DNA of 64,000 bases from Candidatus Omnitrophota bacterium. GTDB lineage: Bacteria > Omnitrophota > Gorgyraeia > B26-G9. Below the pieces are notes generated by a model. That model was not told where the DNA came from. It saw only the letters and a list, made by a program, of their open reading frames with translations, and did not search any database. The DNA is taken from positions 2,089-66,088 of the forward strand of contig JAZDHZ010000027.1 of the NCBI GenBank assembly GCA_043805415.1. The letters are read 5' to 3'. Positions 15,147-17,261 of the stretch are shown here, piece after piece. The translations under genes were made by a program, and so were the position numbers. Numbering within the stretch: position 1 is the stretch's first letter; the number at the start of each line of letters is the position of its first letter.

Positions 15147-17261
15147 TTATCCTTTTTTCTTTAAAAGCAATTTAATCCTGGCTATTAGCCTAACTCCGTC
15201 AAAAGGTTTCGCGATATAATCATCAGCTCCGGCATCAAGGCCTTGGACTTCACTATTGGCATCGCCTTTTGCCGTTAACATCACAATAGGAATAGACGCT
15301 GTTTCTAATTTAGAACGAATTTGTTTTGTCGCTTCAAACCCGTCCATTATCGGCATCATTACATCCATTACAATAAGATCCGGCTGTTTGCGTATTGCCT
15401 GTTCAACAGCTTCAACTCCATTGATCGCCTCGATCGTATCAAATCCAGCGGTTTTAAGCCGCATGGCCACAAGTTTGCGGATATTGTCTTCATCATCAGT
15501 AATAAGCACCAAGGGCTTTTCTCTTTTTGGTAGTTGTTCCTGCGCCTCTTCCGGCACATCTAAAACAGCTACCCGGGATACTTCCTCAAGTGTGCTAATG
15601 CCTAAAGCAACTTTCTGCATGCCTGATTCAGCCAAGCTTTTCATGCCGCAGTTTTGAGCTTCCTGGGCAAGCAATGAAGCTGCTGCTTTTTGGCCAATAA
15701 GATCCTGGACTTTTTTATTTAAATGGAAAATCTCAAAAATTGCCGTGCGTCCGTAATATCCGCTGAATCCGCACTCTTTACAGCCTTTGCCTTTATAAAA
15801 TTTCGCGATTTTAAGTTTGCTGATATAATGCTCGAATTTAGCGCGTTCCTGCGCATCCGGGATATATTCGTATTTACAATGCGGGCAAATAACCCTTATT
15901 AATCTCTGGGCAATGATTAAAATAATTGAAGATGCCACAAGATAAGCTTCCAGCCCGATATCATAAAGACGGCTGATTGAAGATACGGCATCATTGGTGT
16001 GCAATGTGGAAAATACCAGATGTCCGGTCAAAGATGCTTTGAAAGCAATTTCTGCTGTTTCACTGTCACGAATCTCTCCGACAAGAATAACATCAGGGTC
16101 CTGCCTTAAGACACTGCGCAGACTGGTGGAAAAAGTTACGTCTCTTTTCGGGTTAATCTGGATCTGATTGACTCCATCCATTAAATATTCAATCGGATCT
16201 TCAATTGTAACGATATTTTTAGTTTCATTTTTCACAAAACCTAAAGCAGCATACAGGGTTGAAGTCTTACCTGAACCTGTAGGCCCTGTTACCAAAATCA
16301 TTCCCTGCGGACGGGTAAATAGATTTTGCATTATACTTATTTCATCAGGAGTAAAGCCAATCTTACTTAGTTCTATTTTTGATTTTTGAGGATCAAGCAC
16401 CCTTAAGACAACTTTTTCTCCATAATAAGTGGGAATTATCGAAACCCGCAAGTCAATCTTTCTGTTTTGAAAAACAATTTCTGCCCGCCCGTCTTGGGGT
16501 TTTTTATTTTCAGCAATATTCAGATTGGAAATTATTTTTATTCGGGCAACAAATTGCGGATACATTTCCGTTGGTATTTTTAGAATATTTTTTAAATATC
16601 CGTCGATCCGGTAGCGGACTTCTATAAAATTTTCCTGAGGTTCTACGTGAATATCTGTCGCCCGATTGCGGATGGCATCACTTAATATCACTTTAACCAA
16701 ACGCACCACTGGAGAACGCTCTCCCTGCAGCATCTCAGCCTGCACAGAGTCTTTCGCGCTGCCGGCTTCGGTAACTTCTACTGAAGAATCTTCGGCAATA
16801 TTTTTTAGCAAATCATACAAGGAATCATCAACATGATAATATTTTTCAATACATATATCAATATCGCTTTTACAGGCTAAAAAAGGCTGGATGGGTTTAT
16901 TGACTAATAATTTAAGATCATCAATCGCGATAATATCCTGGGGATTACTCATTGCCAAAACCACGCTATCCGCTTCATTGCGCAAGGGAAATACGCCATA
17001 ACGCTTGGCAATATCATAAGAAATTAAGTGTATCACATTCGCGTCAATATTTTCTCCATTCAAGTCGACAATCGGCATTTGAAAAACACTGGACAGTAAT
17101 TCCATCATATCTTTTTCACTCACAAAGCCCATTTCCACAATAACATCCTGAATCGGCAGTTTTGCTCCCTGCTGTCTTTGCCGGGCTTCCTGCAATTGTT
17201 CATTATTGATCAGACCTTTTTCCACTAAAACCGCGGTTAATGATTTGCGCACAGACATCAC
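15147..17261 (-). CDS. GspE/PilB-type secretion/pilus ATPase with N-terminal GspII/MshEN-like domain and a fused C-terminal response-regulator receiver domain
   Basis: Walker A GPTGSGKTST. Tetracysteine CPHC...CKEC. N-terminal SLTAVLVEKGLINNEQLQEARQRQQ resembles the MshEN c-di-GMP-binding motif. C-terminal LVLITDDEDN...DVMMPIMDG...K receiver domain with phospho-acceptor Asp. 704 aa. Confidence 0.8.
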   Translation of the reverse strand: MMSVRKSLTAVLVEKGLINNEQLQEARQRQQGAKLPIQDVIVEMGFVSEKDMMELLSSVFQMPIVDLNGENIDANVIHLISYDIAKRYGVFPLRNEADSVVLAMSNPQDIIAIDDLKLLVNKPIQPFLACKSDIDICIEKYYHVDDSLYDLLKNIAEDSSVEVTEAGSAKDSVQAEMLQGERSPVVRLVKVILSDAIRNRATDIHVEPQENFIEVRYRIDGYLKNILKIPTEMYPQFVARIKIISNLNIAENKKPQDGRAEIVFQNRKIDLRVSIIPTYYGEKVVLRVLDPQKSKIELSKIGFTPDEISIMQNLFTRPQGMILVTGPTGSGKTSTLYAALGFVKNETKNIVTIEDPIEYLMDGVNQIQINPKRDVTFSTSLRSVLRQDPDVILVGEIRDSETAEIAFKASLTGHLVFSTLHTNDAVSSISRLYDIGLEAYLVASSIILIIAQRLIRVICPHCKYEYIPDAQERAKFEHYISKLKIAKFYKGKGCKECGFSGYYGRTAIFEIFHLNKKVQDLIGQKAAASLLAQEAQNCGMKSLAESGMQKVALGISTLEEVSRVAVLDVPEEAQEQLPKREKPLVLITDDEDNIRKLVAMRLKTAGFDTIEAINGVEAVEQAIRKQPDLIVMDVMMPIMDGFEATKQIRSKLETASIPIVMLTAKGDANSEVQGLDAGADDYIAKPFDGVRLIARIKLLLKKKG

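Follow-up and report, generated by a model that had tools for sequence, protein, structure and literature searches.

A PilB-like motor ATPase with a fused C-terminal receiver domain in Omnitrophota: a candidate phosphorelay-gated pilus motor

How a type IV pilus motor is switched is an active question, and the answers given so far name factors acting in trans, i.e., cyclic di-GMP (c-di-GMP) on MshEN domains, PilZ/FimX and CheY-like proteins (PilG/H, PixG/H, EmvR and DrdR). Can the motor also be addressed by a phosphorelay through a domain of its own polypeptide? The question is raised by a gene in a 64,000-nucleotide stretch of DNA from a Candidatus Omnitrophota bacterium (contig JAZDHZ010000027.1 of assembly GCA_043805415.1, positions 2,089 to 66,088), which was analysed as a whole and is referred to here as the window. 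The gene, which we call PilB-REC (15147..17258), encodes a PilB/GspE-type ATPase with a receiver (REC) domain at its C-terminus; like all genes and domains of the window for which coordinates are given below, it lies on the minus strand. On balance, we favour the view that PilB-REC is a PilB-like extension ATPase of an Omnitrophota type IV filament with a tethered, phosphorylatable receiver, gated by a phosphorelay. The core of this reading, a PilB/GspE motor and a phosphorylatable receiver within a two-component operon, was already proposed in an earlier note made from the sequence and is supported here by hidden Markov models, residue conservation, an AlphaFold2 model and gene neighbourhoods.

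The open reading frame (15147..17261) is unbroken across 704 codons and has two candidate starts, GTG at 17261 and ATG at 17258. Since the ATG shares one base with the TGA of the upstream gene (TGATG; AAGGGGTGATG), the real product is probably the 703-residue protein starting at 17258, and its translation is likely coupled to that of the upstream gene. Besides the open reading frame itself, the gene is defined by Pfam and NCBIfam matches and by 120 full-length homologues. Residue numbers refer to the 703-residue protein and Pfam coordinates to the 704-residue numbering from GTG. Pfam places three domains on the single polypeptide, namely MshEN (PF05157, 60-146, E 1e-20), T2SSE (PF00437, 181-563, E 1.8e-132) and Response_reg (PF00072, 585-697, E 3e-27), in line with the three modules named in the earlier note. 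The AlphaFold2 model, computed from the family alignment, has a mean pLDDT of 84.9 and a pTM of 0.77, with low-confidence segments at residues 164-180 and in the linker at 567-577.

The ATPase core, made of N2 and C-terminal domains (residues 180-562, 15573..16721), is that of a complete motor. It matches profile positions 4-370 of 370 of T2SSE with 442 bits (gathering cut-off 24.9), and in the model it superposes on Geobacter metallireducens PilB and Thermus PilF with target-normalised TM-scores of 0.92-0.93, a root-mean-square deviation of 2.2-2.3 Å and 42-45% identity. Key ATPase residues are invariant or nearly so among 121 relatives. In Walker A (GPTGSGKT, residues 325-332, 16263..16286), G325, P326, G330 and K331 are invariant and the other four positions are kept in 119-120 of the 121; in the Walker B region (DPDVILVGEIRD, residues 387-398, 16065..16100), G394, E395, R397 and D398 are all invariant. 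The Asp box TIEDPIEY and the His box LVFSTLHTN are present. All four cysteines of the tetracysteine zinc motif CPHC...CKEC (C458, C461, C493 and C496; 15771..15887) are found in 121/121, and this motif marks extension-type ATPases (PilB/GspE) rather than PilT.

The receiver (residues 584-696, 15171..15509) covers the entire Response_reg profile (1-111 of 111) with 95.4 bits, against a gathering cut-off of 30.2. The acidic pair D588/D589 (15492-15497) is conserved in 118/121 and 121/121 relatives, respectively, the phospho-acceptor D632 (15363-15365) and T662 (15273-15275) in all 121, K684 (15207-15209) in 120 and the aromatic switch residue Y681 in 119. Judged by these residues, the domain is canonical and should be phosphorylatable, and the conserved Asp and Lys claimed for it earlier are in place. 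Conservation extends to the alpha4-beta5-alpha5 face, where E670 and R694 (both 121/121), D680 (120/121), K/R690 (114/121), K/R696 (109/121) and D/E675 (108/121) are retained. Active PhoB dimerizes through the pairs R91-E111, D101-R115 and E96-K117. The same region of our receiver aligns without gaps to PhoB, and E670 and K/R690 would, under that mapping, presumably represent a charge-swapped R91-E111 pair. The comparison suggests that the receiver may pair with another one, be it from a second protomer within the hexamer or from the receiver proteins encoded upstream. The receiver is joined to the ATPase by an acidic, disordered linker (residues 563-582, 15513..15572; pLDDT <50 at 567-577), and the solved structures listed as matches align over at most ~500 columns, none of them reaching the receiver.

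The earlier note implied that such a fusion is unusual. By contrast, it defines a large conserved family. In a whole-database search, the MshEN-T2SSE-Response_reg architecture and a size of about 700 residues recur in each of the best 120 clusters (49-93% identity; drawn from NCBI, JGI, ENA and Logan assemblies). Members with a named organism belong, with few exceptions, to Candidatus Omnitrophota (among them Aceula, Gygaella and Tantalella), and the nearest named relative is from an Omnitrophica metagenome-assembled genome (MAG), with 89% identity. Fused relatives are publicly annotated in generic terms, as 'T2SS/T4P/T4SS family ATPase' or 'TadA'. We also searched 1.84 billion representatives of 50%-identity clusters with a profile, using sub-profiles for N-domain, ATPase and REC. 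About 87-89 of the best 150 representatives combine the N-domain, the ATPase and a C-terminal REC. The profile includes REC and the ranking thus favours REC-bearing proteins; even with this bias, at least ~87 distinct 50%-identity clusters are fused. Outside Omnitrophota, the fused clusters with a named organism are labelled Elusimicrobia, candidate division WOR-3, Thermodesulfobacteriota or Deltaproteobacteria. A scan of species-representative genomes, which is a sample obtained with generic PilB patterns and whose listed matches are mostly unfused PilBs, contained true fusions, among the matches listed, in a Deltaproteobacteria MAG (L004) and in a Frankiaceae-labelled MAG (L030), where a zinc ribbon separates the ATPase from REC. 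Two further candidates (L013 and L075), in which REC seemed to be covered, proved unfused on inspection.

Other architectures are found among the best 150 representatives. Eight carry REC at the N-terminus (P0206, P0220, P0237, P0243, P0249, P0252, P0255 and P0147) and one (P0122) has three C-terminal RECs. The remaining types are PilF-like proteins with multiple GSPII domains and tandem ATPase fusions of ~1000 residues. The latter contain two full PilB/GspE cores per polypeptide (P0125, P0128, P0130-P0133, P0135, P0136, P0138, P0140, P0141, P0143, P0151 and P0161), the two T2SSE matches of P0125 amounting to 795 bits. Giants of 1200-1500 residues (P0182, P0184, P0187 and P0191) consist of PilB, REC and a long extension without a domain match; in P0182, the only one scanned with Pfam, PilB and REC are separated by a double zinc ribbon.

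The fusion has likely arisen more than once, or has been lost repeatedly. Two sequence-based observations point in this direction. When scored by their ATPase cores, fused and unfused representatives are intermingled. In addition, canonical MshEN motifs are retained in ~20 of 87 fused clusters more distant from the window protein, as they are in L004 and L030, and the RECs of several such motif-retaining fusions are divergent, scoring 30-75 bits against the Omnitrophota REC profile versus 100-200 bits for most of the remaining fusions (five other motif-retaining fusions score 112-148). A single origin is disfavoured by the same interleaving and by the low-scoring RECs.

Gene neighbourhoods connect the fused motor to two-component signalling. 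Ten PilB-REC loci were read, i.e., the window and nine others (L083, L088, L085, L001, L002, L086, L087, L090 and L084). In nine of the ten, kinase and/or receiver genes adjoin PilB-REC. A single REC gene is located directly upstream in six loci and a REC-REC gene in two; prepilin genes follow directly downstream in four, only one of which (L085) also has a T2SSF gene. L083 (71% identity) shares the gene order of the window and encodes, one after the other, a histidine kinase with GGDEF and REC domains (HK-GGDEF-REC), REC-REC, PilB-REC, a 193-residue protein and a pilin. In L088 (54%), PilB-REC is followed by the same pair of membrane protein and prepilin genes and then by a kinase and two receivers. 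In L085 (50%), it is directly followed by the gene for the T2SSF (PilC/GspF) platform protein and by three prepilin-type genes. In the other six loci, the gene immediately upstream of PilB-REC codes for a single-domain receiver, and kinase genes as well as several receiver-only genes lie in the vicinity.

In the window itself, genes from 22902 to at least 12053 all point in the same direction with gaps of 0-98 nt, and PilB-REC is preceded on the same strand by the double receiver, two hybrid kinases and CheY that the earlier note had placed there. The string begins with a hybrid kinase of TM-HAMP-PAS-HisKA-HATPase-REC architecture (20443..22902; TM, transmembrane), followed by a CheY-like single receiver (20050..20424), a second hybrid kinase with PAS-HisKA-HATPase-degenerate GGDEF-REC domains (18095..19951) and a 273-residue tandem receiver (17258..18079), all assigned by Pfam. 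The second kinase, whose architecture also adjoins PilB-REC in L083 and L001, may be its conserved partner. Its GGDEF-like domain lies at residues ~360-495, between HATPase and REC (Pfam E 1e-9), and no GG(D/E)EF motif is found in its sequence. The tandem receiver, in which Pfam detects two RECs, is coupled to PilB-REC by the TGATG overlap and is syntenic in L083; both of its RECs look canonical.

What occupies the same position in ATPases without REC? The nearest non-REC cores, P0154 (annotated as Omnitrophota) and P0155, both end in a PilZ domain located exactly where REC is found in the family, and RxxxR and (D/N)xSxxG-like motifs are visible in these PilZ sequences. P0155 is encoded directly downstream of a REC-PAS-HD-GYP gene, likely a c-di-GMP phosphodiesterase. 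Thus, the neighbours match the fused input domain, with kinases and receivers next to the REC fusions and a c-di-GMP enzyme next to the PilZ fusion. Among the comparative arguments, this match speaks most strongly for the view that the added C-terminal domain acts as a regulatory input to the motor, and the regulatory input of the PilB-REC family appears to have moved to this C-terminal slot, with REC here and PilZ in the nearest non-REC relatives.

We propose the following mechanism. One or both of the adjacent kinases would phosphorylate D632, and the T662/Y681 switch would then alter the alpha4-beta5-alpha5 face of the receiver. This face could pair with another, neighbouring receiver of the hexamer, or dock on or off the ATPase ring. 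The result would be a changed ATPase turnover or hexamer assembly and, hence, a changed filament extension. The upstream REC-REC and CheY-like proteins may act as competitors for the phosphate or associate with the motor, in the way known in trans for EmvR and DrdR of Xanthomonas. The sign of the phosphorylation effect on the ATPase is not predictable by analogy, because EmvR of Xanthomonas oryzae binds PilB and represses its ATPase (PMC11973254), whereas DrdR of Xanthomonas campestris, a tandem REC protein, binds PilB and PilT and enhances the ATPase activity (PMC13507683).

Several points weigh against this proposal. The evidence in hand consists of the domains, the catalytic and phospho-acceptor residues, the conservation of the fusion and the linkage to kinases, receivers, (some) pilins and a PilC-like platform; all mechanism beyond a phosphorylatable REC is what we infer from these. 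The linker between ATPase and REC varies from 21 to 334 residues across fused relatives, which speaks against a fixed docking geometry, and the comparison with PhoB is a tentative one. Both adjacent kinases are hybrid and Pfam detects no Hpt domain in the operon proteins, which complicates the assignment of a phosphotransfer route. The GspE model of NCBIfam scores nearly as high as the PilB model, with 566.1 bits (cut-off 630.25), and PilB likewise stays below its cut-off. Finally, no PilC, PilM/N/O/Q (including the secretin) or PilT gene was detected by Pfam among essentially all open reading frames of at least 120 residues in the 64-kb window, which contains only two pilin-like genes; therefore, the assignment of PilB-REC to a particular machine in this genome is tentative.

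The receiver might instead be a docking or localization tag, or a phosphate sink tuning a multi-receiver network in which the motor is a signalling hub, without control of the ATPase. A linker of such variable length would suit a tethered interaction module, and the loci are dense with receiver-only proteins and hybrid kinases, as in branched phosphorelays. In Myxococcus xanthus, PilB is reported to take part as a signalling protein in the regulation of exopolysaccharide (PMC5544727). However, the interchange of REC and PilZ at the same position favours direct control, as do the effects of REC proteins acting in trans on the ATPase activity of PilB. The strict conservation of the alpha4-beta5-alpha5 face implies a specific protein contact but leaves the partner unspecified. 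Taken together, we regard a docking or sink role as unlikely.

A gated motor of a different machine has to be considered as well. The ATPase could drive a pseudopilus resembling the one in type II secretion systems (T2SS), or a pilus for competence (Com-type), instead of a surface type IVa pilus, in which case the receiver would gate secretion or DNA uptake. The best NCBIfam model is that of type IV-A PilB (TIGR02538), with 608.7 bits, which does not reach the equivalog cut-off of 675.65 and is close to the GspE score given above. The best Foldseek E-values belong to GspE, one L085 pilin has a faint T2SSG match, and the pilin encoded downstream of PilB-REC in the window is similar to ComGC and pseudopilins. 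The latter is a prepilin-type protein (14099..14584) with the class III signal KAFTFVEIM and E5, matching N_methyl in Pfam and IV_pilin_GFxxxE/ComGC-like models in NCBIfam and present in L083 and L088. By contrast, the N-domain aligns full-length to PilB and PilF (from residue 5-7; to the Geobacter and Myxococcus PilBs from residue 7), but to GspE only from residues 78-138, and PilB and PilF give the top TM-scores. Genes for type IVa pili are reported to be near-universal across Omnitrophota (PMC10066038), and no secretin or GspC/L/M gene was seen nearby. We thus consider a secretion or competence machine improbable, to about the same degree as a docking or sink role.

Between PilB-REC and the prepilin gene, 4 nt downstream of the former, lies the gene for a 182-residue membrane protein with a pilin-like C-terminal domain (14594..15142). 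It starts with a charged cytoplasmic segment, followed by one transmembrane helix and a C-terminal domain that contains Cys and bears weak similarity to the globular domain of the prepilin encoded next to it; neither a Pfam match nor a prepilin cleavage motif was found in it. Its homologues are the 193-residue protein of L083 (53% identity, faint ComGC_C match) and the membrane protein of L088 (34%). The last ~45 residues of the window prepilin form a low-complexity Lys/Ala-rich tail (KKARLKAEKAAAQAAAKAAKAAEAAAKAAKKKKK), which is not found in the L083 and L088 orthologues, these ending in shorter Lys/Glu-rich tails.

Does the N-terminal domain provide a second input? The earlier note had recognized a c-di-GMP motif at the N-terminus, and this claim is not confirmed. 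The N-domain comprises an MshEN_N-like four-helix region (residues 4-58, 17085..17249), delineated by alignment to PilB, PilF and MshE, by column frequencies and by four helices predicted in the AlphaFold2 model, and an MshEN/GSPII C-subdomain (residues 59-145, 16824..17084), to which the Pfam match belongs. Homology is clear (73.8 bits for Pfam MshEN; E 2e-14 in phmmer against MshE, 5HTL), but the Pfam match spans the C-terminal subdomain only and, being so restricted, lends no support to the motif. The motif region consists of a degenerate 24-residue motif I (SLTAVLVEKGLINNEQLQEARQRQ), the 5-residue spacer QGAKL and motif II (PIQDVIVEMGFVSEKDMMELLSSV). The 24+5+24 spacing, the turn glycines G15 and G44, most hydrophobic positions and Q29, which ends motif I, are kept, and the stretch quoted in the earlier note does align with MshEN motif I.

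The ligand-contacting signature, by contrast, is lost. The MshEN consensus is RLGxx(L/V/I)(L/V/I)xxG(L/V/I)(L/V/I)xxxxLxxxLxxQ, in which Arg makes a stacking contact with guanine, O6/N7 are held by the backbone amides of Gly and of the residue after it, Leu forms a hydrophobic sandwich and Gln binds ribose and phosphate (PMC5013675). In PilB-REC, motif I has the changes R1 to S, G3 to T and L21 to R and reads SLT...R..Q instead of RLG...L..Q; motif II has R1 to P, G3 to Q and Q24 to V and reads PIQ...L..V. We ran a strict pattern and the relaxed published one, [RKPN]hGxxhhxx[GAS]hhxxxxhxxxhxx[QNKRYWST]. The relaxed pattern fits not a single one of the 121 family members, but it does fit the controls (Geobacter and Myxococcus PilB, PilF GSPII-C, L004 and L030); the relaxed pattern also misses PilF GSPII-A, though that domain is an experimental non-binder. 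XpsE has lost binding through G11V, I19R, L29R, R38G, G40L, L54H, L58C and Q61V (PMC5013675). Five of these positions (G11, L29, R38, G40 and Q61) are altered in PilB-REC, with L29R and Q61V identical. PilF GSPII-A, with a near-perfect motif I and a degenerate motif II, does not bind c-di-GMP (PMC11731258). Thus, the MshEN fold is kept, and canonical c-di-GMP binding by this N-domain is very unlikely as judged from its residues; binding through the N-terminal motif was rejected as unlikely on the basis of the alignment, column frequencies and both patterns with their controls. Residues 31-48 (17113-17168) read G-A-K-(K/R)-P-x-(Q/H)-(E/D)-L-L-V-E-M-G-F-x-x-E in more than 90% of the 121 relatives at most positions; this segment stands in place of the R-L-G start of motif II and, from its conservation, appears to be under selection.

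A dual-input motor, in which the MshEN domain would still bind c-di-GMP and gate the ATPase jointly with phosphorylation, is accordingly very improbable for this protein. Preserved spacing, glycines, hydrophobic positions and Q29 would fit it, as would the remark in the MshEN paper that perfect motif conservation is perhaps not needed (PMC5013675) and the motif-retaining minority among distant PilB-REC clusters. The organism evidently uses c-di-GMP signalling, since the window contains three stand-alone PilZ genes within 4 kb (60030-60398, 62261-62650 and 63374-63805) and, near them, a DUF520 (YajQ-family) gene (58501-58995). Nevertheless, R1 and G3 are gone from both motifs together with L21 of motif I and Q24 of motif II, the whole family fails a pattern that the controls fit, the same positions are altered in the non-binder XpsE, PilF GSPII-A is a non-binder with only motif II degenerate, and the GGDEF domain encoded next to PilB-REC is degenerate. 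Dual c-di-GMP and phosphorylation input probably exists in other PilB-REC clusters, not in the Omnitrophota family.

That an assembly error or frameshift joined a PilB gene to a separate response-regulator gene has a negligible probability, given the continuous 704-codon frame and 120 of 120 best homologues, from independent NCBI, JGI, ENA and Logan clusters, with the same fused length and domains; nothing supports it, and only an unrelated Helicobacteraceae MAG (L075) has PilB followed by a separate, overlapping REC-GGDEF gene.

The rest of the neighbourhood adds few clues. The best promoter-like site (23193..23164) lies upstream of the first kinase gene; however, sites in the promoter and terminator scan were overall not above chance, and no operon boundaries were obtained. 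After the pilins, genes for a zinc metallopeptidase-like protein (Peptidase_Mx, weak match) and an ATP-grasp protein (D-Ala-D-Ala ligase-like) follow at 12053-14094, either 4 nt apart or overlapping; in view of their synteny in L083, they may share the PilB-REC transcription unit. No CheA/MCP chemosensory system is found nearby, and the remainder of the window consists of housekeeping genes, among them those for glycine cleavage, for a hydrogenase and its maturation and for polyamines. In two related loci (L002, 1612-9561; L086, 1-7558), a complete V/A-type ATPase operon (subunits I, c, AC39, F, A, B, D) lies directly upstream of REC and PilB-REC. Seymour et al. described non-respiratory F-type ATPases beside type IVa pilus clusters in Omnitrophota.

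More broadly, we tentatively suggest, with somewhat less confidence than for PilB-REC itself and short of an even expectation, that in Omnitrophota and several mostly uncultivated phyla the extension motor has become the terminal response regulator of a multi-kinase phosphorelay. The hexamer would be turned on or off after translation by phosphorylation of the C-terminal receiver. This arrangement would replace the ancestral N-terminal c-di-GMP switch, with the C-terminus as an interchangeable slot (REC, three RECs or PilZ). A covalent PilB-REC family provides 'Rosetta-stone' support for direct control of the motor by REC, and PilB-REC offers a one-polypeptide system for measuring the effect of phosphorylation on hexamer activity. 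As the parallel fusions of PilB to PilZ and the lost MshEN motif suggest, the regulatory input of the motor may be modular and replaceable in evolution. Type IVa pili have been proposed to serve host attachment in Omnitrophota (PMC10066038), and PilB-REC points to a signalling route that may decide the timing of pilus extension in these ultra-small bacteria. If so, environmental or host sensing would be coupled directly to pilus extension in host-dependent nanobacteria.

Compared with known systems, neither the component parts nor the logic of REC controlling PilB is new. MshEN is already known as an input for c-di-GMP in cis. The covalent design and its wide occurrence are so far undescribed, as are the loss of the MshEN motif and the exchange of REC for PilZ. 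No description of a PilB-REC (T2SSE-Response_reg) fusion, or experiment on one, was found in the literature searched, and the Omnitrophota papers examined treat type IVa pili as host-attachment devices and make no mention of a PilB fusion. A general remark that MshEN co-occurs with REC and other domains has been made, with one example, Bd2402, being a REC-MshEN_N protein without an ATPase (PMC5013675). PilB-REC shares the MshEN/GSPII, N2 and C-terminal domain motifs with the PilBs of G. metallireducens (5TSG/5TSH/6OLJ), G. sulfurreducens (5ZFR) and M. xanthus and with Thermus PilF, at ~44-45% core identity and TM-scores of 0.92-0.93. It differs from PilB in the added C-terminal receiver, in a score below the TIGR02538 cut-off and in its degenerate c-di-GMP motifs, which are canonical in Geobacter and Myxococcus PilB. 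Vibrio cholerae MshE (5HTL) has a homologous N-domain (E 2e-14) with the same 24+5+24 layout and predicted four helices, but its R9, G11, L29, R38, G40 and Q61 are S, T, R, P, Q and V in PilB-REC, which in this respect resembles the non-binding XpsE and PilF GSPII-A. In Xanthomonas, PilZ is reported to bind PilB in trans together with FimX (PMC8389850). In the PilB-PilZ-FimX systems of Xanthomonas and Pseudomonas, a small signalling domain likewise sits on PilB and conveys a second-messenger or phospho signal; the window protein has REC instead of PilZ. The closest functional parallels are EmvR, DrdR, PilG/PilH and the PATAN-REC regulators of Synechocystis, the latter being reported to interact with the type IV pilus motor (bioRxiv 10.1101/2021.06.11.447907). 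Common to all of them is a REC acting on the motor, in trans in these systems and as a cis fusion here. A REC-REC protein similar to DrdR and a CheY-like protein are encoded in the window shortly before PilB-REC; the N-terminal REC of DrdR is a pseudo-receiver, unlike both RECs of the window's tandem protein. If our reading is correct, natural cis-fusions of Omnitrophota would mirror the trans-acting regulators of Proteobacteria and cyanobacteria.

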